58,867 nucleotides of DNA from a virus (lineage: Duplodnaviria; Caudoviricetes). A model generated the notes under the pieces. That model was not told where the DNA came from and searched no databases. It saw nothing but the letters and a program-made list of their open reading frames with translations. The position numbers and the translations under genes are program-made. The stretch covers positions 1 through 58,867 of the IMG/VR virus record IMGVR_UViG_3300034062_004791; one strand, 5' to 3'. Of this stretch, positions 316-51,276 are shown piece after piece. Positions within the stretch are counted from its first letter, which is position 1. Each line of letters begins with the position of its first letter.

Positions 316-536
316 TAATCATAAACACCCCAATGCTCTTTTACATAAATCAAAAATTCTGGGATGATTTTCTCATTATAAAATGGATCCAACTTTCGAT
401 CCTTAAAGATCCTAAGAAGCATGTTCGGTTGATACCGGGACAATACATTTGTATAACATTGCCCCCAATTGAGTCTTGGGTAGTTTTCGTCATAATCATC
501 CACGACTTCTTCAAGATAGCGTTTAAATTCTGTCAT
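315..536 (-). CDS. Hypothetical protein
   Basis: 73 aa; ATGA-coupled to the upstream HNH gene and followed by a terminator. Confidence 0.7.
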   Translation of the reverse strand: MTEFKRYLEEVVDDYDENYPRLNWGQCYTNVLSRYQPNMLLRIFKDRKLDPFYNEKIIPEFLIYVKEHWGVYD

Positions 537-1075
537 GATTGTTTAATGTAGGCTTTTTTGTTTATTTTGTATGAGGATCCCCTTTCGCTGAAGATAAAAA
601 TTTCTTCTTTTTGATTATAGGGATTAATATCAATTTTTTCAATAATCCCTTTATATATTAATTTTCTATGAGACTTTACATAAAGCTCCTTACCTTCGAT
701 GGGTCCTCGATAACTTATAAAAGGAACCACATCGATTCCACTACCTTTTTCTCTGTTACACACATAGCACATTGGTTGAAGATTTTCGATATTATCTTTT
801 CCTCCAAATACTTTAGGAATTATGTGATCAATTGTAATTTCTATGTCATCTGATGACAGAATTGACCAGAAAATTCTATCGTGTCTTTGATCCTTATACT
901 TCCTCAATTTAATGGCGCATCTACCACAAGAAACACATGTGTATCCAATCTTCTTAAAGAGTTTAATTCTCTTAGCAGTACCTAGAAATCTAGACGAATA
1001 TATTTTGTCCGAGACAATAACATCTTCAAAAGAAAGTTCTTTTAGAAGTTGGGGCTGAGGTTTCTTTTTTGCCAT
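533..1075 (-). CDS. HNH endonuclease
   Basis: CxxC...TIDHIIPKVFGGKDNIENLQPMCYVCNREKG motif. Confidence 0.9.
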   Translation of the reverse strand: MAKKKPQPQLLKELSFEDVIVSDKIYSSRFLGTAKRIKLFKKIGYTCVSCGRCAIKLRKYKDQRHDRIFWSILSSDDIEITIDHIIPKVFGGKDNIENLQPMCYVCNREKGSGIDVVPFISYRGPIEGKELYVKSHRKLIYKGIIEKIDINPYNQKEEIFIFSERGSSYKINKKAYIKQS

Positions 1076-4266: not shown

Positions 4267-4818
4267 TTATACCCCACAAGTAGCCATTTGTTCTTGTTGA
4301 GACTTTTGAACAAACTGAGTGATTTCACTTGAGAGTTCGTAAGATTCTTTACGGGCCTCCTCAAGAATTGGGTCAATGAACCACTTCATTACCAGTTGTT
4401 CTGGGAGTCCTTTATATGACTCTGTTTTTAGATTGAGGTTAGACTGCATAATCCAGAAAAATGGCTGAGCATAATGAGACAGCATATTCGTAGCAATTTC
4501 TGTAATATCGATAGTAATATTAGGAAAATAATCAATATCATTCATATAGAGAGCTTGTGCATAGCCTGCGATACAGTGAGAGGTCCCACAACTATTTTTT
4601 GTGTGCCAACTATTCATATTAAATCGGTTTTGATTAGACTTAATAATAGAGGCAACCCTTACAAGATTACTCCATTGCTCGGCTGTGATAGAACTTCCAC
4701 TATTGAAAATGTCATCATTCCGAGAAAACATAAAAACACCTGGCCTTACACCAGTAATTTGTTCAGATTCAGCAAGCAGAGCAAAATAGTTGTTCTTGAA
4801 ATCAATTGGAGTCAACAT
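4267..4818 (-). CDS. Hypothetical protein with FNMxxW...CGTSHCIAG motif
   Basis: Recurrent phage Cys/His motif of unknown function. Confidence 0.75.
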   Translation of the reverse strand: MLTPIDFKNNYFALLAESEQITGVRPGVFMFSRNDDIFNSGSSITAEQWSNLVRVASIIKSNQNRFNMNSWHTKNSCGTSHCIAGYAQALYMNDIDYFPNITIDITEIATNMLSHYAQPFFWIMQSNLNLKTESYKGLPEQLVMKWFIDPILEEARKESYELSSEITQFVQKSQQEQMATCGV

Positions 4819-4836
4819 AATTTAAAATGAGTTGGT

Positions 4837-4905
4837 TGAACTGAGTGTATTATAGGGGATATTGATGGGAGGTGGTAGGGTCCTTGTGCCAGTTAGTCGG
4901 GTGTC
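4837..4905 (-). promoter_or_regulatory. Early promoter element
   Basis: TATAAT at 4848-4853; gggtcctt-gtgccagtt-agtc-gggtgtc. Confidence 0.8.
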
Positions 4906-5172
4906 CTACCATACATACACTTCTTTTTGATAAAAATTCCAATTTCCTACAATTTCCTTTGCATTATCTCCAAAAAATCCATGAGTAATTCCAGATGGGT
5001 TCCGTCTCCCTAGAATATCGCAACACACAGTCAACTCTTGATAAGACGCATAAACCACCGTATTAGTTCTAGGTGACATAAATTCATTTAGTTCCTCATC
5101 TGGGATAAATTGACCTAGTTTAATCGACAGATCGCCTTTTGAATTATTAAATTTAGAAATAAGTAATGGCAT
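4906..5172 (-). CDS. Hypothetical protein
   Basis: Start MPLLISK at 5172, downstream of the promoter at 5196-5252. Confidence 0.65.
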   Translation of the reverse strand: MPLLISKFNNSKGDLSIKLGQFIPDEELNEFMSPRTNTVVYASYQELTVCCDILGRRNPSGITHGFFGDNAKEIVGNWNFYQKEVYVW

Positions 5173-5195
5173 AATGAGTTGATTGAACTGGAGAC

Positions 5196-5252
5196 AGTAT
5201 AAAAGAGAATTGGCTGGTCTGGTCGGGTCCTTGTGCCAGTTGGTCAGGTGTC
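5196..5252 (-). promoter_or_regulatory. Early promoter element
   Basis: TATACT; gggtccttgtgccagtt-ggtc-aggtgtc. Confidence 0.8.
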
Positions 5253-6172
5253 TCCAGTGCAATCCAAAAAGTAATGATAATGAGCCGAATTGGGTGGGAT
5301 ATAGCGAACCACCACGCAACCCTTGTACGTGTCAACTTCCTCAAACTTTTGTGGTGGTTCTTTAGGTGCCACTGTAATATTGGATACAATATACATCGCC
5401 AAAAATGTTGGTATGGAAAGTATAATGCCCAAAAGTACACATTCGCCAATATTTAAAAGTGTTTTCATAATAATCAACAGATCACGAAACGATGAAACGA
5501 TGAGATTTAAAGATATCGTATCCATAATCAGTACTAACAAAGAATCCCAATTCTTCCAACCTCTTCTTATCCTCAGAGGATACATAAAAAGGTGAAATTA
5601 CAGGATTAACAGTCAAAGAATTGTTTTCACAATGGAACAATGGGGGTTCAAAATTTCCATATTTGGAAAAGATTTGGAGTGCTTCAATTAGGTCGTTCAT
5701 AATAATAATTCAAATTTCGTCTACAAAACTAACAGTCGGAGTAAGTCCTTGAATTTTGTACTCCTCAATTTTCTTGAATGTTTCTGTGGTGAAAGAATCA
5801 TCTTCTAGTTCTTTTTGACTAGCAAATTTGAGAAATAAGTTGTAATCATAAGAATCAAGGTCTTTTGATGGGACTATGCTGTTTGCATCAAAAAATTCAA
5901 CTTTACCGGACTTTATGAGTTCTTCTAATTCTTTAATTTTCATTTTGATAAGTGTTCTCGTTTGTCAAGTTCTTCTTTTATTACAGAAAGTTTTTGATTA
6001 ATTTTTTTTCTATTTTCTCTCCATTCAACACAAGAAGAACAATCACAATACCATACCCAGTCCGCTGCATAAACGTGTAAATACTCTCTTTCTTTACGAT
6101 AAACCTCCAAGAGACGATGAGTGGGGAGTTTAAGAATTGTTTCTAGTTTGTTTCTGTTAGGGTCCATAATAT

Positions 6173-11737: not shown

Positions 11738-12139
11738 TCACACTAGAGTACATTCATCGAAAGTAATCTTTGCATTAGCAACTTGCATTTGTCCATTATA
11801 AAAATACTTTTTCCATATGTCTTCACTGTCATCACCATCACCATAAAGAATAAAGAGAACTCCGTTAAATTTTTCAGAAACAGAAATCATATTCGTTTCA
11901 TGGTCATACCATTTACATTTATCTCCAAATGGGTTAAACCCAATAATATCTAAAACATCAGATTCAGTGACATAGTGATTTTGGTATTCTTTGTTGATAT
12001 CGCTGATTAGGCGGTTTTTTGTTGTTTCAGATAGATTAGAATCCTTAATTTCTTGAATTTCGGCCTCTTTGGCTTTTTTTCTTTCTGCTTGACCTTTGGA
12101 ATAATCAATTGTCAACTCATAGTAAGTGTTGTAGCCCAT
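11738..12139 (-). CDS. Conserved phage hypothetical protein
   Basis: MGYNTYY...KWYDH...LFILYGDGDD pattern; promoter at 12164-12222. Confidence 0.8.
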   Translation of the reverse strand: MGYNTYYELTIDYSKGQAERKKAKEAEIQEIKDSNLSETTKNRLISDINKEYQNHYVTESDVLDIIGFNPFGDKCKWYDHETNMISVSEKFNGVLFILYGDGDDSEDIWKKYFYNGQMQVANAKITFDECTLV

Positions 12140-12218
12140 AATGCTCCGATGAATTACTTTGTAAGTTTACTAGATGATTGTGTGATGGAGTGGGGTCCTT
12201 GTGACGGTTTGAGAAGTG

Positions 12219-12362
12219 TCACATAAACTCCATCATAAAATAATCAACAGTAATTCCACATTGCGAACAAAACTCTTCAACATCATCAGGCAGCGATTCC
12301 ATAATATTTGATGTTGCGAATCTTTCCCAGAGTTCGTAAAACTGGTCTTCAGAGAGAGTCAT
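12219..12362 (-). CDS. Small acidic protein (47 aa)
   Basis: MTLSEDQFYELWERF...GITVDYFMMEFM; the C-terminal motif is recalled from small cyanophage proteins. Confidence 0.65.
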   Translation of the reverse strand: MTLSEDQFYELWERFATSNIMESLPDDVEEFCSQCGITVDYFMMEFM

Positions 12363-12501
12363 TTAGATGATTCAAATGGTTTTGATAATACGCAATGTCA
12401 TCGAGAATAGAGTCTTTTATGTTTTGAGAATAATCAGGGTTATCCTCAATTTCCTTTTTTAATGATTCGATTTTTGTTTCTAAAAGAGTGAATTCGTCCA
12501 T
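12349..12501 (-). CDS. Hypothetical protein
   Basis: Start MDEFTLL at 12501; the longer ORF overlaps the tRNA. Confidence 0.55.
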   Translation of the reverse strand: MDEFTLLETKIESLKKEIEDNPDYSQNIKDSILDDIAYYQNHLNHLNDSL

Positions 12502-12518
12502 GTTGTTGGTTTGTTTAG

Positions 12519-12599
12519 TGTTCATCAAGAGATTTGAACTCTTATGGTTGCCCAGCAACATTTTCGATGTTGTGCGGATACCAATTCCGCTAGATGAAC
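12519..12599 (-). tRNA. Class II tRNA with Leu-type body and GAA anticodon; CCA not encoded
   Basis: GTTCATC TA GCGG AATTGGTAT CCGC A CAACA TCGAAAA TGTTG C TGG GCAA CCA T AAGAG TTCAAAT CTCTT GATGAAC A; all stems pair perfectly. Confidence 0.85.
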
Positions 12600-12604
12600 A
12601 AGAA

Positions 12605-12707
12605 ATTAATTTCCTGCTTCAACTCAGGAAATTAATAAAATACTCTTCCTTCCACAGACGAGTAAAAATTGTGTTAAGTGAAACGGAATCCGATAGATTT
12701 TTAACAC
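12605..12707 (-). ncRNA. Structured leader (three hairpins) ahead of the tRNA
   Basis: 12-bp perfect inverted repeat 12605-12616/12625-12636; tactc/gagta stem; gtgttaa/ttaacac stem 12671-12707; promoter box at 12748-12770. Confidence 0.5.
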
Positions 12708-12766
12708 CCCTTAAAGATAGCAGACTTATTGGCGGTTTTGGTGGTCAGTGGACAGTTTGTGGCCTG

Positions 12767-13012
12767 TCACGCGCTCAACTGTTTGATCTTCTCTCTAATC
12801 GCCCTGGCCCGGTCGAAATCTTTTTGTTTTAGGGCATCTTCTAAAGACTTTTGAAGGCTAGTAATCGCCGCGAAACTTGCCTCTTCGGTTAAATGATTTA
12901 ACCATTCTTCGGGCGCATTTTGTAGTGTTTTTAATGCAATCTCTTCGTCTCTAAAAACACCAGATTCCATGAGGATTTTTAGAATTTCTTCGGCTATTAG
13001 ATCGTTTTCCAT
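12767..13012 (-). CDS. Late protein with C-terminal UVR (UvrB/C-type) coiled-coil motif
   Basis: LEDALKQKDFDRARAIREKIKQL; ATAAATA late promoter upstream. Confidence 0.65.
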   Translation of the reverse strand: MENDLIAEEILKILMESGVFRDEEIALKTLQNAPEEWLNHLTEEASFAAITSLQKSLEDALKQKDFDRARAIREKIKQLSA

Positions 13013-13025
13013 GTTCACTATCTTT

Positions 13026-13037
13026 CTAAATATTTAT
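13026..13037. promoter_or_regulatory. Overlapping bidirectional T4-type late promoters
   Basis: ctaaatatttat gives CTAAATA on plus and ATAAATA on minus. Confidence 0.6.
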
Positions 13038-13045
13038 TTTAAAAG

Positions 13046-13126
13046 ATGACCCAACAATTACTAACAGGATTTTGCATAATCCTAATAGGCTCTTTAACCG
13101 CATATCTCATTAAAATCAGCCAGTAG
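13046..13126 (+). CDS. 26-aa single-TM peptide
   Basis: MTQQLLTGFCIILIGSLTAYLIKISQ, just downstream of CTAAATA and filling an otherwise empty gap. Confidence 0.5.
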   Translation: MTQQLLTGFCIILIGSLTAYLIKISQ

Positions 13127-13490
13127 GATAAACAAGAACTTGCTTGACTTCTTCTTGAGTCATATTTAGTCGTTTACCTAGAAGAAATGCCCGCTTCTTC
13201 CAGATCATAATAGCCTTTGTTAGCTGATTGACTTTTGCATGATTCAAAAAATGTGCCCGACGTTTTGCGATAATGAACAGCGTATTATATGCTTTCATGT
13301 CGTTAATTAGGTCTTGATGTTGATCAAGTTCCTTTTTAGAGATTTTGTTGAACATTTTGAAATAGACCTCTTTATAAGAAGTCAATTCGTCCAGGACCTT
13401 ATAAGTATCCTCTAGGGAGAGTTCTTCAAGATCATCGGCGGTAATATCTTGGGCAAAAATTTGGGAGAAATATGAAATCATAATGTGCAA
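13116..13490 (-). CDS. Hypothetical protein
   Basis: About 120 aa helical ORF; start uncertain. Confidence 0.7.
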   Translation of the reverse strand: MHIMISYFSQIFAQDITADDLEELSLEDTYKVLDELTSYKEVYFKMFNKISKKELDQHQDLINDMKAYNTLFIIAKRRAHFLNHAKVNQLTKAIMIWKKRAFLLGKRLNMTQEEVKQVLVYPTG

Positions 13491-13643: not shown

Positions 13644-13673
13644 GAGTTTTTCTCCAAAGAAACGGTTGAAAAT

Positions 13674-13723
13674 TGCGTTCCTTCGCTCTAAAGAGCTACT
13701 TCCGGCCAATTTGGCTGAACGAA
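13674..13723 (-). ncRNA. Glutamine riboswitch (glnA/Downstream-peptide family)
   Basis: TTCGTTCA-GCCAAATTGGC-CGGAAGTA-GCTCTTTAGAGC-GAAGGAACGCA: P1 CGTTC/GAACG, P2, E-loop GGAAGTA/GAAG, P3. Confidence 0.88.
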
Positions 13724-18966: not shown

Positions 18967-19764
18967 ATGAAATTTAATATTAAATCATCTCAAATTGACA
19001 CTAGAGATTTTATTTACAGAAACGATAGCACAGAGGTCTTGCGGGAATCCGTAGATCTCCGTGAATGGGATACAATTGTCGAATCGCAAGAAGATTTAGG
19101 TAGTTGCGCCGCCAATGCAATAACAAATGCCTATGAACTTTGCGTTAATCGAAATTATCCTGAACAGTTTACTCATCTAAGTAGATTATTTGTTTATTAT
19201 AATACACGCCTTGAGCACGGAATAATCGAAGAAGACGAGGGAATGTTTCTTAGGGATGGTATGAAATCATTATCCAAATATGGAGTGTGTTGTGAAAAAT
19301 TATGGCCTTATGGTATAGACAAATTTAACATAAAACCAAGTGAAGAGGCATATGAGGACGGTATAAAAAGAAAAATTCTTAATTACCAAAAACTCATAAG
19401 CACCTATTATATTGCCCAGGTGATAAACAACAACAAACCAGTTGTATTTGGAATGACCATTTATGAAAGTTTTATGGATCTAAATGAGCGTATTTCTACT
19501 GTTACTTTTCCTTCTAGAAAGGAAAGAAATCTTGGAGGCCATGCTATGTGCATGGTTGGTTATGATTTAAATAAGAGACTATTTTTGGCAAAGAATAGTT
19601 TTGGGTCTGATTGGGGAGACAACGGCTATTGTTGGATTCCTTTTGATTATATTGAGAAAGAGGCATACGACATTTGGACATTTGAAATCCCACCCCAAGC
19701 AGGAGAACTCAATGTACTACCCCTACCCATACTATCCGTACCACAGGCGGAGATATTGTTATGA
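18967..19764 (+). CDS. Papain-family (C1A) cysteine protease
   Basis: VDLREW, QEDLGSCAANA, GGHAMCMVGY and KNSFGSDWGDNGYCW; catalytic Q/C/H/N all present. Confidence 0.93.
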   Translation: MKFNIKSSQIDTRDFIYRNDSTEVLRESVDLREWDTIVESQEDLGSCAANAITNAYELCVNRNYPEQFTHLSRLFVYYNTRLEHGIIEEDEGMFLRDGMKSLSKYGVCCEKLWPYGIDKFNIKPSEEAYEDGIKRKILNYQKLISTYYIAQVINNNKPVVFGMTIYESFMDLNERISTVTFPSRKERNLGGHAMCMVGYDLNKRLFLAKNSFGSDWGDNGYCWIPFDYIEKEAYDIWTFEIPPQAGELNVLPLPILSVPQAEILL

Positions 19765-47823: not shown

Positions 47824-48309
47824 TCATAGATAAACGTACTCCCTCCATTCATCAACATTAGATTTTTTCAAAATAATCTCCAATTTACTTTTAGGTTTGT
47901 AGTTGGTTCGGTAAGGAAACTTACCCCATTCTTCTGGGGTCCGATTACCCTTTTCTTCATTACAACTTCGACATGCTGGCACTAGATTATCGAAAGTGTG
48001 AAGCCCTCCGCGAGACAAAGGAATTACGTGATCGATTGTTAAATCATCATAAATTCCACAATAAGCGCACTGATAATTACCAAATTTCTTAACAAGATTT
48101 TTGGTTGGCCTCACACTCAAGAGTTTTTCAAATGGAATCCTTACATAATTTTTCAGGCAAATGACTCGTTTAGAAATAAACTTGACTCTTTCTTTCAATA
48201 AAAGAACAACGGCTCTTCGCCATTTTATAATGGAAATCGGGTTGTAATCGGCGTTTAAAAGTAACACATCTCGGTAAGGTTCTAGGTCCTTGTAGCTCAT
48301 AAAGATCAA
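47824..48309 (-). CDS. HNH endonuclease (McrA-like, cyanobacterial type)
   Basis: VLLLNADYNP, CAYCG and LTIDHVIPLSRGG..NLVPACRSCNEEKG. Confidence 0.9.
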   Translation of the reverse strand: MIFMSYKDLEPYRDVLLLNADYNPISIIKWRRAVVLLLKERVKFISKRVICLKNYVRIPFEKLLSVRPTKNLVKKFGNYQCAYCGIYDDLTIDHVIPLSRGGLHTFDNLVPACRSCNEEKGNRTPEEWGKFPYRTNYKPKSKLEIILKKSNVDEWREYVYL

Positions 48310-48980
48310 AACTCCTTGATTACACCAGATTCTACATTATAAAGAGACAACGGAGCCAGAGAATCGCTCCCACATCCAGAATCAAGAACGATGGATTGGT
48401 CTCCAATAAAAACCGTATGATAATGACCGGCTACCCGGACGTATTCTTGGTTTTCATTCTGGGCCTCCCACCACTTGACTCGGATATTATCCCGGTCGGT
48501 TTTTCCGTAAATAAATACGTCCCTGTACCTACGATTAAGGTCACTCCTAAAAACAAAATTTGATTCTGTTTTTAGACTATTCGGGAAGTATGCATGGGCA
48601 ATTCGGTATTCCTTGCCCCTACTATCCTTCATAATCGCCCCATAAGGAAAAGACGAAAGAAGATCAAACAGGGCTTTTTTATCAATGTTGTTCTCCTCAA
48701 ATTCCTTGATTGTGACATCTAGGCCATTATTTTGAGAGACATTGTTTCCTTTTAGATAACGAACTAGCTTGTCCTGGTGATTAGAATGCATACAAACGTG
48801 ACCATTTTTTACACACTTTTCCACCAGATTAAGAACCCCAATGGAGTCACTGTATCCAATCTTGCTATCAAAAATATCTCCAAGAAAGATAATCTGGAGA
48901 TTTTGGGACTCGGCATAATCAACTGCACTTTGCAGTCTTTGGGACTGAGAGTGAATATCAGAAATAAAACAGAAAGACAT
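48306..48980 (-). CDS. Metallophosphoesterase (Pnkp/ApaH-like phosphatase)
   Basis: SDIH, LGDIFD, SNH, AGHYH and LDSGC motifs. Confidence 0.88.
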   Translation of the reverse strand: MSFCFISDIHSQSQRLQSAVDYAESQNLQIIFLGDIFDSKIGYSDSIGVLNLVEKCVKNGHVCMHSNHQDKLVRYLKGNNVSQNNGLDVTIKEFEENNIDKKALFDLLSSFPYGAIMKDSRGKEYRIAHAYFPNSLKTESNFVFRSDLNRRYRDVFIYGKTDRDNIRVKWWEAQNENQEYVRVAGHYHTVFIGDQSIVLDSGCGSDSLAPLSLYNVESGVIKEF

Positions 48981-49469: not shown

Positions 49470-49949
49470 TCAATTTAGTGGACAGTTAAAGGACCGTCCA
49501 TCGGCCACTTGAGAGAAACCCTCCGAAACGCATGGCCTACTATAAGAGCCATGCATCGACTCTAGCACATGAATGGGGACAGTTTTTGTTCTGTCTGAGT
49601 TGTGATTTCTTTTTAACATTTCTTCTTTGGTTATTTCAAAATAAACAGCAATCTTCTCATAATGATCTGGAATCATTTTGAGTTTTCTTTTCCTAACTTT
49701 TGGGGTCAGGTGAGTCTGATCACAAATAATGTTTTGATCATTTTTGACCGCATGTTCAAGTTGTTGAAGCATTAATGAGATTGCCTCGGTTATGTATTCA
49801 CTAAAGATCGCATCGTATGTCGAGTTGATATTCTCAGCATAATTTTCGATTATGTTGTCAGAAGAGATGACAATGTATCCTGGGTGCGTTTTGACCCAGG
49901 AAGATTTTCCAGATGTTGGAACACCGCATAAAAGAATTGCTTTAGGCAT
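49470..49949 (-). CDS. P-loop kinase (polynucleotide kinase/AAA_33-like)
   Basis: LLCGVPTSGKSS, ISSD and ICDQTHL...R motifs. Confidence 0.9.
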   Translation of the reverse strand: MPKAILLCGVPTSGKSSWVKTHPGYIVISSDNIIENYAENINSTYDAIFSEYITEAISLMLQQLEHAVKNDQNIICDQTHLTPKVRKRKLKMIPDHYEKIAVYFEITKEEMLKRNHNSDRTKTVPIHVLESMHGSYSRPCVSEGFSQVADGRSFNCPLN

Positions 49950-51276
49950 CTTGAGATTCCAAATCTACATAATTTTCATCATCTAGTTGTTTAGTTTCCC
50001 ATTCAAGAAATTTGAATGATTTGAGTTTATAAATCTCAGAATCAAAAATGTCTTTCCTTAGGCAAATTCCTTCATCTGGAACGGGTTTTTTCTGAGATAC
50101 ACATAGGTCACAATCTTTCTCCAAATAATCGCCAATAAGACACTGAAGAAAATTCTCGTGCCAATGGTCATTTACAGAAAGATCTGGATAAAGATCCTTG
50201 GCCTTTCCATAATAAAGTTCAGGAACCATTGTGAGTCCAAACTGTTCACAATATTCCTTCACCTGATTATGGGAGAATTCATAAACTTGACCAGACTGGT
50301 TTGTTGTGGTGATTCGGTAAATATAGGTCTTAAATGTGCCCGGTTCACAACCATAATCATATCCATTTTGGATGTAACCACCGGTTTTTAGATACCCAGT
50401 GGCTTCTCCATAAAGGGTAATAGAATCTTGAATTGCGTATTCTACTGATTTGGCAATTTCTTCCCAGAGATCATAAGAATAAAAATGATCCTTATTTCCT
50501 ACTTCAAGATAGCCGTTTTTCAGGACCCTTCTTGATGCCCAAAGCAAATCATACTCAGTGTCAACAATTTTTACACCAAACTTTTTAAGCAACTTTTCTT
50601 GCCAGGTCAGCCTTTTATTACACAGAAGTCTGGCCGCAACCCATGAGGTTCCATGAAGTTTTCGGGTAATTGCAATATAATCGTTTGGCGAAATATTGTG
50701 AATGGATTTTTTTAGTTGAATGGTATCATAATGAAACCTGAATTGTTGATCAACAACTTTAGGCTCACGAACAACTTTCTTCTGATTTTTCTTCTCCTTA
50801 TTTTGCTTCTTAAGAGAAACAGGATTTACATACTTCTCGCAAACGAGAATATCACCATAAGAATCAAATTCTGTTCCGACCAGATCCTCTTTAAAATCAA
50901 CACTCTTTCCGGTCTTTTCTTCTAGCCAATTGCAGAATTTATCAAACGGCAGGGCATAACCCATAGAAGGCACTGATCTCAATTTTACAGCCCTCACTCT
51001 TCCCTTAGAATTGAAAAATCCAGCTACTTCCTTATTATCATTTAGAGTTTTATCAGAAAAAGAATTGCCCCATGAGAGGAACTCTTTATTGATAGCACAC
51101 TCTAGCGGAAAGTAAACATAAACGTCTCCTTCCTTTGCGTCCAATGAAACAATAACAGAATTCCCTTGGATAACTGCAATCTGAAGCCTATCGGCATTAG
51201 GGTGAGGGGCAATATTATCCAGTCGGACAATCTGTGACAAATAATTTGGGTTGGCTTTTTCTGAAATCTTAAACAT
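49942..51276 (-). CDS. RNA ligase (Rnl2/DRB0094-like, with N-terminal OB domain)
   Basis: PHPNADRL OB motif; TRKLHGTS (motif I), LYGE, DEGICL and KLKS. Confidence 0.88.
   Translation of the reverse strand: MFKISEKANPNYLSQIVRLDNIAPHPNADRLQIAVIQGNSVIVSLDAKEGDVYVYFPLECAINKEFLSWGNSFSDKTLNDNKEVAGFFNSKGRVRAVKLRSVPSMGYALPFDKFCNWLEEKTGKSVDFKEDLVGTEFDSYGDILVCEKYVNPVSLKKQNKEKKNQKKVVREPKVVDQQFRFHYDTIQLKKSIHNISPNDYIAITRKLHGTSWVAARLLCNKRLTWQEKLLKKFGVKIVDTEYDLLWASRRVLKNGYLEVGNKDHFYSYDLWEEIAKSVEYAIQDSITLYGEATGYLKTGGYIQNGYDYGCEPGTFKTYIYRITTTNQSGQVYEFSHNQVKEYCEQFGLTMVPELYYGKAKDLYPDLSVNDHWHENFLQCLIGDYLEKDCDLCVSQKKPVPDEGICLRKDIFDSEIYKLKSFKFLEWETKQLDDENYVDLESQDA

Follow-up and report, generated by a model that had tools for sequence, protein, structure and literature searches.

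A transfer RNA (tRNA) gene that joins the body of a leucine tRNA to the anticodon of phenylalanine is carried by a virus of the Caudoviricetes (Duplodnaviria), known from the IMG/VR record IMGVR_UViG_3300034062_004791. This record was analyzed in full, as one stretch of 58,867 bases that is classed as linear and makes up about 24% of the estimated genome; it is called the window from here on. The gene encodes a complete class II tRNA with a long variable arm, the anticodon GAA and a cytidine at position 33. It is the positional orthologue of the tRNA-Leu(UAA/CAA) genes that are kept behind a conserved hairpin in large cyanophage-like viruses, and in its lineage the loop bases C32-U33-Y34 were changed to U32-C33-G34 while the helices and the core tertiary positions stayed intact. 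Tentatively, we take it to be a remodelled tRNA-Leu that would still fold and mature, and that may be an active decoder of UUY codons with leucine (Leu) or mixed leucine/phenylalanine (Leu/Phe) identity. The positions of all features are collected in Table 1.

The gene itself is readily recognized. ARAGORN, run on the whole window, reports a single tRNA at 12518-12599 on the minus strand and labels it tRNA-Phe(gaa). The Rfam tRNA model RF00005, which has a gathering score of 29 bits, aligns over its full length (model positions 1-71) to 12519-12599 on the same strand, with 50.8 bits and an E-value of 8.7e-11, when a 94-base input is given. With the whole window, with 321 bases or in a search of the virus's own genome the same model gave no match, and because the full alignment on 94 bases is clean, these misses are taken as losses at the filter stage. 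The claim of the first-pass annotation, a note made earlier from the letters of the window, that the tRNA is solitary holds for the window, that is, for roughly a quarter of the estimated genome, and no further.

Its architecture is that of a flawless cloverleaf, as that annotation had also proposed. An acceptor stem GTTCATC/GATGAAC is followed by T8 and A9, a D arm GCGG-AATTGGTAT-CCGC by A26, and then come the anticodon arm CAACA-TCGAAAA-TGTTG, the variable region and the T arm AAGAG-TTCAAAT-CTCTT. Every one of the 21 stem pairs is Watson-Crick. Folding by minimum free energy yields the cloverleaf (-26.5 kcal/mol, z -4.58), with none of 200 shuffled sequences folding as well; RNAfold adds a U32-A38 pair within the anticodon loop. 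The core bases U8, A14, G18G19, T54-T55-C56 and A58 are all present. Only position 33 departs from the tRNA core, the uridine of the U-turn being replaced by C at 12566, and the usual marks of a tRNA pseudogene (broken helices, lost core bases, a score below threshold) are missing. The anticodon GAA at 12565-12563 and C33 thus lie exactly where they had been placed. A shift of the cloverleaf register, which might bring back U33 or produce the serine (Ser) anticodon CGA, was considered by hand and rejected, since a 5-bp anticodon stem is kept in no other register.

Which synthetase would recognize such a molecule? According to a review by Giege and Eriani, bacterial Leu identity is set by A73, by tertiary interactions (A15-U48, G18G19), by A20a and by the large variable region, with no anticodon element, while G73 is the mark of Ser and an antideterminant for leucyl-tRNA synthetase (LeuRS) (PMC9976931). 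Counted by position, the D loop of the window tRNA reads A14 A15 T16 T17 G18 G19 T20 A20a T21, and the molecule has A73, A15-U48, G18G19 and A20a; of these, A73, A15-U48 and A20a had been assigned correctly in the first reading. The variable region is of class II size, 12 nucleotides (nt) with a 3-bp stem. A73 argues against Ser identity, and the anticodon is of neither Leu form (NAG or YAA). Because the whole Leu set is present by position and LeuRS has no anticodon element, the window tRNA is predicted to be a LeuRS substrate.

It may be a substrate of phenylalanyl-tRNA synthetase (PheRS) as well. Phe identity lies in G34, A35, A36 and A73 in all systems studied, to which E. coli adds U20 and U59 (PMC9976931). 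Since the four common elements and U20 are present in the window tRNA, some charging with Phe would be likely. Bacterial tRNA-Phe(GAA) shares GAA, A73, A37-A38 and U20 with it, but is a class I molecule with a short variable loop, whereas the window tRNA has a 12-nt arm, C33, A59 instead of U59 and a descent from tRNA-Leu. The order A31-U32...A38-U39 presumably resembles that of E. coli tRNA-Phe save at position 33. On sequence features only, the gene is therefore a mismatched tRNA, in which a body made for an anticodon-blind synthetase has been joined to the anticodon of another amino acid.

The origin of the gene is told by its neighborhood. On the viral contig L002, an open reading frame (ORF) of 83 amino acids is followed by roughly 1.5 kb of additional ORFs, a hairpin that shares its 16-base core with that of the window, a tRNA gene, a 50-amino-acid ORF and a 47-amino-acid ORF, and the tRNA in this slot is a tRNA-Leu(taa) with the loop CTTAAAA (Rfam, 46.7 bits). 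When IMG/VR was scanned with the 16-base hairpin core, 65 stretches were found, and a tRNA lies just downstream of it in 5 of 66 segments (four contigs). Two of these five segments come from the L002 contig and three from the contigs G001-G003, which share an identical tRNA-Leu(caa) behind the same hairpin (loop CTCAAAA, 55.9 bits). One of the latter, G002, is a complete genome of 249,820 bases with terminal repeats, in which the only two tRNA matches are Leu(caa) and Pro(tgg). The hairpin is hence joined to a class II A73 tRNA in three lineages, two of which read the UUR Leu codons while the window copy has GAA. Common descent with tRNA-Leu genes is established by slot, hairpin and flanking ORFs in the case of L002, and by the hairpin in the case of G001-G003. 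This synteny gives additional support to the structural description made at first sight (a Leu-type class II body with a Phe anticodon and C33), which was correct. Replacement of the gene by a foreign tRNA was considered and set aside: among the 184 other ARAGORN tRNAs in the fetched loci the one in L002 is still the closest (66% identity), the similarities all lying at 59-66% and not being decisive. The anticodon arm itself may either have mutated in place or have been swapped in from another tRNA.

Cultured cyanophages provide the wider family. The L002 tRNA matches annotated tRNA-Leu genes in 75 phage records, of which Synechococcus phages make up 65, and the window tRNA matches none (blastn). 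With the tRNA-Leu(UAA) of the Kyanoviridae S-RIM2, S-RIM32, S-CAM1 and SynMITS9220M01, and of S-SCSM2R and Syn9, the window tRNA shares the class II body, A73, the AATYGG D loop, the TTCAAxT T loop and U48. It differs from them in its loop (UCGAAAA, not CUUAAAA), in the changes G9 to A, G13.A22 to G-C and G59 to A, and in that it can no longer read UUA or UUG. The supply of tRNA-Leu(UAA) matters for cyanophage infection (PMC11726456). S-SCSM2R has both a tRNA-Leu(taa) and a tRNA-Leu(tag), and no exact copy of the hairpin.

How far has the gene moved from its relatives? The window and the L002-type contig agree at about 80-85% of positions in the flanking DNA (77-91% for the longer blocks), and the two tRNAs are identical at 41 of 69 positions (59%) outside the variable region, with a single match among the 10 positions of the anticodon stem. 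The variable region measures 12 nt in the window, against 18 in L002 and 11 in G002. Nine of the 21 pairs are the same in the window and L002, three have changed on one side and nine on both sides, and none is broken; mismatches occur in L002 (G13.A22 and U31.U39) and not in the window. Five cultured cyanophage tRNA-Leu(UAA) genes served as outgroup, with a consensus in at least four of the five at 57 positions: 31 of these are ancestral in both tRNAs, 11 are derived in the window only, 6 are derived in L002 only and 9 differ in both. Among the changes seen only in the window are G9A, G59A, A22C (by which 13-22 becomes Watson-Crick paired) and, in the anticodon loop, C32T, T33C and T34G. The loop is CTTAAAA in all six other UAA genes compared (the five cultured ones and L002). 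Because the relatives carry normal Leu loops, we conclude that the window loop is the derived, odd state, and likewise that the fold remained under selection while the sequence changed rapidly.

A normal Leu anticodon in related viruses had been named in the first-pass annotation as a sign of recent decay or of sequence error. The relatives do have such anticodons, UAA in L002 and CAA in G001-G003. Error is excluded, as set out in the next paragraph, and simple decay, while possible, fits poorly, since 9 of 21 pairs differ on both sides from L002 and none is broken: all 21 are intact after heavy, compensated divergence. The check for conservation suggested at the same time showed a Leu gene in the same slot, and no close relative with the GAA/C33 loop was found.

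The loop is genuine. Contigs covering 12200-13100 (901 bases) were compared in four sequencing runs, X2, X4, X5 and X6. The contig of X2, which may be the source sample, covers all 901 bases at a depth of 24.3 with 0 differences, and that of X4, which belongs to another study, spans 12426-12576 and with it the loop, at a depth of 3.2 and again with 0 differences; the contigs of X5 and X6 stop short of the loop, which is confirmed in two of the four runs. Sequence or assembly error is excluded as the source of the loop, because contigs from two runs and two studies match without a difference; an artefact, which the presence of the loop in just one IMG/VR contig might suggest, can be dismissed as extremely improbable, all the more as three adjacent bases, not one, differ from the relatives.

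A remodelled and still active tRNA-Leu could work as follows. The RNA would probably be made by read-through from upstream and then trimmed, and its CCA end would be added by the host or by the phage's own protein of the nucleotidyltransferase family. LeuRS, which ignores the anticodon and reads the large variable region, A73 and the corner formed by A15-U48, G18G19 and A20a, would leucylate it, some Phe charging being likely through G34, A35, A36, A73 and U20. Its GAA anticodon would pair with UUC and UUU, and competition with the host tRNA-Phe would lead to low-level Phe-to-Leu substitution during infection. C33, together with the possible U32-A38 pair, would modulate activity on the ribosome, not abolish it.

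Several known molecules resemble it in part. Both yeast (at 0.02-35%) and mammalian cells incorporate Leu at Phe codons when given a tRNA-Leu with GAA, which halves the growth of yeast (PMC11028032). Human Leu-CAA-3-1 C34G and the engineered yeast tRNA-Leu-GAA are like the window tRNA in that a Leu body has received the Phe anticodon from a YAA anticodon, and for them insertion of Leu at UUY is demonstrated; but they are eukaryotic, are rare alleles or constructs, keep U33 and result from a single base change (PMC11028032). The window tRNA belongs to a virus and is, it seems, fixed in the natural population, and its loop differs at three positions, C33 among them. As to position 33, U33 is near-invariant, the exceptions named in print being eukaryotic initiators (C33) and Candida tRNA-Ser(CAG) (G33) (PMC5041475). 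The latter also combines an odd base 33 with a mismatch of identity and anticodon, but has a Ser body, reads a Leu codon and belongs to an established change of the code (PMC5041475), unlike the window phage, in which no code change is seen. Closer in structure is tRNA-Leu(GAG) of S. cerevisiae, a class II molecule that shares C33-G34-A35 with the window tRNA but has a cognate Leu anticodon; its C33 is natural, and a U33 put in its place makes little difference (PMC13492127). Since this natural C33 is not substantially harmful, C33 is no proof of inactivity. That C33 is real was rightly seen in the first annotation; the argument that the loss of U33 must cripple the tRNA is weakened by the yeast case (PMC13492127).

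Is the window tRNA alone of its kind? A pattern in which YYGAAAA stands between a Leu-type D loop and a T loop, with C33 allowed, gave 15 stretches in IMG/VR. Eight of them contain ARAGORN tRNAs, seven Ser (UGA or CGA) and one class II tRNA(GAA), on the viral contig L091; the 3' half of L091 is unique in IMG/VR, and blastn against phage records found no match to the gene. In a collection of 185,579 species genomes the pattern, used with fixed spacing, gave 64 loci and 65 segments: 11 class II tRNA(GAA) with the loop CTGAAAA, 32 Ser tRNAs and 22 that are not tRNAs. The 11 lie on bacterial or archaeal contigs, mostly metagenome-assembled, and for 9 of them the stretch fetched contains no second tRNA; one lies on an Absconditabacterales contig and adjoins a tRNA(UCA). 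Leu-type tRNA(GAA) genes thus recur at a low rate, and the window copy alone among them has C33. None of the openly accessible main texts searched describes a Leu-type tRNA(GAA) from a phage or a bacterium, and only the human and yeast work was relevant.

C33 by itself is less rare in the loci fetched, where 11 of 185 ARAGORN tRNAs have it (a biased set, as the pattern allowed C33). Outside the selection by pattern it occurs in Met CAT, Leu GAG (TCGAGAG), Pro TGG and Ala CGC tRNAs, which stand beside U33 tRNAs on the same viral contigs. Five tRNA-rich viral contigs (L079, L084, L086, L087, L090) carry several C33 tRNAs beside U33 ones, with the loops CCCATAA (Met CAT), CCCGAAA (Ser CGA), CCTGAAA (Ser TGA), TCGAGAG (Leu GAG), CCTGGGA (Pro TGG) and CCCGCAA (Ala CGC). 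The Ser-like C33 tRNAs have the same D-arm string as the window tRNA, and four bases between the acceptor and D stems. On L086 (37-122, 2646-2733) and L090 (3795-3880, 6404-6491) there are also long-arm tRNAs of 86-88 nt that ARAGORN labels Asn (GTT) or His (GTG), which would add to the cases of a class II body joined to an anticodon not expected on it.

Several observations weigh against an active remodelled tRNA-Leu. The first concerns expression. An own promoter had been claimed for the gene, and this was not borne out: a consensus scan for sigma-70-like sites in 12000-13200 found four, all on the plus strand and none on the minus strand, and what lies 5 nt upstream of the gene is a terminator-like hairpin with a 12-bp stem. 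In each of the three lineages, AT-rich hexamers resembling a -10 box can be seen immediately 5' of the hairpin, by eye only. Parts of the stretch are found in 10 runs from 10 studies (lake or freshwater metagenomes, 2016-2024), a persistence that counts in favor of an active gene, but none of the runs listed as containing it is an RNA run, so that there is no evidence of expression from that side. The second concerns relatives: no close one with this loop was found, and the module of hairpin and tRNA is seen in three lineages only. An exact scan of IMG/VR with 18 bases of the D arm for close relatives with the same loop gave 0 copies. With blastn, the tRNA and 501 surrounding bases gave nothing, or chance matches of 19-37 bases, against 50,697 phage records, and a relaxed pattern of hairpin and T loop gave no further copies. 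The one scan made of metagenomes gave four stretches, two of L002 type and two due to chance. A profile of the downstream 50-amino-acid ORF matched the L002 contig only, and a neighboring ORF of 133 amino acids matched the contig L001, which has no tRNA within 4 kb. In addition, on a rough estimate, the rate of GAA variants in genomes looks low enough for sporadic mutation. G9, G13.A22, C32, U33, U34 and G59, invariant in the six other cyanophage tRNA-Leu(UAA), have been lost from the window tRNA, which could equally mean relaxed constraint.

The phage proteins, too, bear no visible mark of a new decoder. In the 32 long ORFs of the window (8614 codons), TTT accounts for 3.77% of codons, TTC for 1.04%, TTA for 1.59% and TTG for 0.96%, so that TTT is the commonest UUN codon, and Phe makes up 4.8%. 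Over 2762 aligned residues, from ORFs of both strands, of the window and the L002-type contig, Phe stands opposite Phe 126 times, window Phe opposite Leu in the relative 8 times and window Leu opposite Phe 10 times. In 22 same-strand orthologue pairs (2344 codons) the two have 85 and 88 TTT, 39 and 35 TTC, 24 and 25 TTA, and 40 and 41 TTG. Replacements between Phe and Leu are therefore symmetric and the use of TTY and TTR is the same, so that no adjustment of the proteome is seen, low-level ambiguity being undetectable here. The same comparison gives no sign of a reassignment of UUY, nor, in the 22 pairs, of a fall in TTA despite the loss of the UAA anticodon; TTA in the relative stands opposite CTA in the window at 8 sites and the reverse holds at 2, a weak asymmetry too small to interpret. 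Moreover, Phe-to-Leu ambiguity would hit every phage protein, without evident benefit.

Could the gene then be a non-decoding relic? It would be either a very young pseudogene or an element kept for its fold only, such as an RNase P/Z signal that frees the mRNA of a small ORF, or a stabilizing structure. This we hold to be rather unlikely, although it accords with much of the above: a derived loop where the relatives have normal Leu loops, changes at three adjacent loop positions and at the family-invariant G9, A22 and G59, no own promoter in the consensus scan of 12000-13200, and codon use without the footprint of a new decoder. The setting would suit it as well, the gene lying in a row of genes on the same strand, with a conserved ORF that starts 17 nt behind it and the conserved hairpin ending 5 nt before it. 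Neutral decay, however, is expected to break helices, and after 41% divergence 21 of 21 pairs are intact, as are U8, A14, G18G19, T54-C56, A58 and A73. A processing signal alone would not require the full Leu corner set or A36-A37-A38, and C33 alone is not disabling in yeast tRNA-Leu(GAG) (PMC13492127).

A more ambitious proposal is that the three loop changes form one adaptation, by which an accessory tRNA-Leu was turned into a class II decoder of UUY that would sustain TTT-rich messages when the host tRNA-Phe is attacked or scarce. G34 would provide the Phe anticodon and U32 a Phe-type loop, C33 would remove the U-turn uridine needed by a host anticodon nuclease, and charging would be by PheRS, by LeuRS or by both. 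We consider this unlikely and put it forward as speculation. If true, this phage would provide the first long-arm tRNA found in nature to work on Phe codons, as well as an instance of alloacceptor recruitment by a virus, and the tRNA of L091, the 11 genome segments and the contigs with several C33 tRNAs would belong to a wider, undescribed practice.

In another reading the gene would be a recruited tRNA-Phe, that is, a tRNA-Leu turned alloacceptor for which PheRS is the dominant charger, and which gives a TTT-rich phage an extra and harmless Phe tRNA. The presence of G34, A35, A36, A73 and U20 would allow this, as would the 3.77% of TTT, the top UUN codon among the 8614 counted; a class II yeast tRNA-Tyr given GAA is indeed mischarged by PheRS (PMC9976931). 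We nevertheless regard it as decidedly unlikely. All LeuRS determinants are retained and LeuRS ignores the anticodon (PMC9976931), and tRNA-Leu(GAA) inserted Leu in both yeast and mammalian cells (PMC11028032). Position 59 is A instead of U, and both codons are already covered by a host tRNA-Phe, whose anticodon is likewise GAA. We know of no class II tRNA-Phe.

The first-pass annotation had also thought of an anticodon-nuclease decoy and of a non-ribosomal Leu donor. Here the C33/U32 loop would be nuclease-resistant or act as a decoy, or the Leu-tRNA would feed an acceptor of the L/F-transferase type; we judge all of this improbable. Phage tRNAs have been proposed to escape anticodon nucleases by loop mutations (van den Berg et al., 2023; PMC10264068), and, like the window tRNA, they have changes at the flanks of the anticodon. 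In that model, however, the escaping tRNA keeps its anticodon to replace the cleaved host tRNA (PMC10264068), whereas position 34 has changed in the window as well; because the anticodon itself has changed, the window tRNA cannot replace tRNA-Leu(UAA). An RNA ligase near a metallophosphoesterase, with a protein of the CCA-adding family, does point to investment in the upkeep of tRNAs, and several other viral contigs carry multiple C33 tRNAs beside U33 ones. On the other side, this phage has no known host, nuclease or transferase, and none of 10 neighboring ORFs has a Pfam family.

The hairpin is a conserved companion of the gene. In three diverged viral lineages it precedes the tRNA by 5-13 nt, and it could act in termination, in processing or in the binding of a protein. 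Its loop AGUUGAAG and the four closing pairs are identical in the three, and 5 of the 12 pairs of the stem change on both sides across the three sequences, one of them appearing as U-A, C-G and G-C. The percentage of paired cells is reached by 2 of 500 shuffles, which with three sequences is suggestive only. A repeated regulatory cassette is ruled out, the hairpin being present in a single copy in the window and in each of G001-G003. Just upstream of this module, the extra ORFs of L002 (about 1.5 kb, at 4312-5729 between the 83-amino-acid ORF and the hairpin) have no counterpart in the window, and because they occur in L002 only the region is taken for a hot spot of insertions and deletions. 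One of them encodes a 128-amino-acid protein with a repeated 'AQNPNTPTKTLE.LA.D' motif.

Table 1. Positions of the tRNA gene, its companions and related genes in the window and on other contigs
Feature	Position	Strand	Remarks
Class II (long-variable-arm) tRNA gene	12519..12599	-	81 nt, A73, no encoded CCA; ARAGORN, Rfam, fold, synteny
Anticodon loop U32 C33 G34 A35 A36 A37 A38	12561..12567	-	GAA at 12565-12563, C33 at 12566
Variable region CTGGGCAACCAT	12544..12555	-	12 nt, 3-bp stem TGG/CCA, GCAA loop; last base T = U48 position
Conserved hairpin	12605..12636	-	12-bp stem, 8-nt loop AGUUGAAG; ends 5 nt before tRNA 5' end; terminator-like
Hairpin copies elsewhere	L002 ~5999-6031; L077 ~1047-1079
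Upstream 83-amino-acid ORF	12767..13018	-	88% identical to L002 counterpart; synteny anchor; no Pfam family
Conserved 50-amino-acid ORF	12349..12501	-	starts 17 nt past tRNA 3' end; 86% identical in L002; no Pfam family
Conserved 47-amino-acid ORF	12219..12362	-	also 3' of the L002 tRNA; no Pfam family
CCA-adding enzyme / poly(A) polymerase family protein, 243 amino acids	7681..8412	-	PF01743 63.3 bits, PF12627 29.8 bits
RNA ligase	49942-51276	-	PHROG 968, PF09414
Calcineurin-like metallophosphoesterase	48306-48980	-	close to RNA ligase
Glutamine riboswitch aptamer	13672-13723	-	RF01739, 52.2 bits
Class II tRNA(GAA) on viral contig L091	787-871		85 nt, loop TTGAAAA, U33, A73
Class II tRNA(GAA) in 11 genome segments			L099, L103, L110, L125, L128, L131, L132, L133, L140, L144, L146

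Further along the same strand, about 4 kb downstream of the tRNA, is the gene of the CCA-adding family protein, which has a head domain and an RNA-binding domain and an orthologue in the L002-type relative; it could mature a tRNA that has no encoded CCA. The RNA ligase and the metallophosphoesterase may be a pair for RNA or tRNA repair. The glutamine riboswitch is on the strand of the tRNA, some 1.1 kb ahead of that gene, and precedes a small ORF; the orthologous region of the relative is collinear. The window as a whole has a GC content of 33-42% and mainly small ORFs, mostly on the minus strand, with tail-fibre proteins, a DNA helicase and the RNA ligase among its PHROGs names; an HNH endonuclease (533-1075, minus strand; PF01844, 45 bits) and a papain-family cysteine protease (18967-19764, plus strand; PF00112, 52.9 bits) are also encoded. 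One 612-amino-acid protein matches 19 records (11 Synechococcus phages, 6 'Marine virus', 2 'Cyanophage') and makes the 244-kb Synechococcus phage S-SCSM2R the nearest cultured relative (58.4% identity over 99% of the query). We read the window as probably part of a large freshwater cyanophage-like myovirus.

What would such a gene mean for these phages? The tRNA-Leu(UAA) of cyanophages is among the few phage tRNAs with a demonstrated role in the success of infection (PMC11726456), and in the window its orthologue has retained a flawless fold while the codons that it can read have changed, to an anticodon that escapes checking by LeuRS. If the gene is inert, it would be a phage tRNA gene that persists as pure structure. 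If it is active, it would either be a case of a natural virus blurring Phe and Leu, deliberately or tolerably, or of a Phe tRNA made from a Leu tRNA. It would then represent a new route by which a phage enters translation, and a natural counterpart of the engineered and human tRNA-Leu(GAA) mistranslators.

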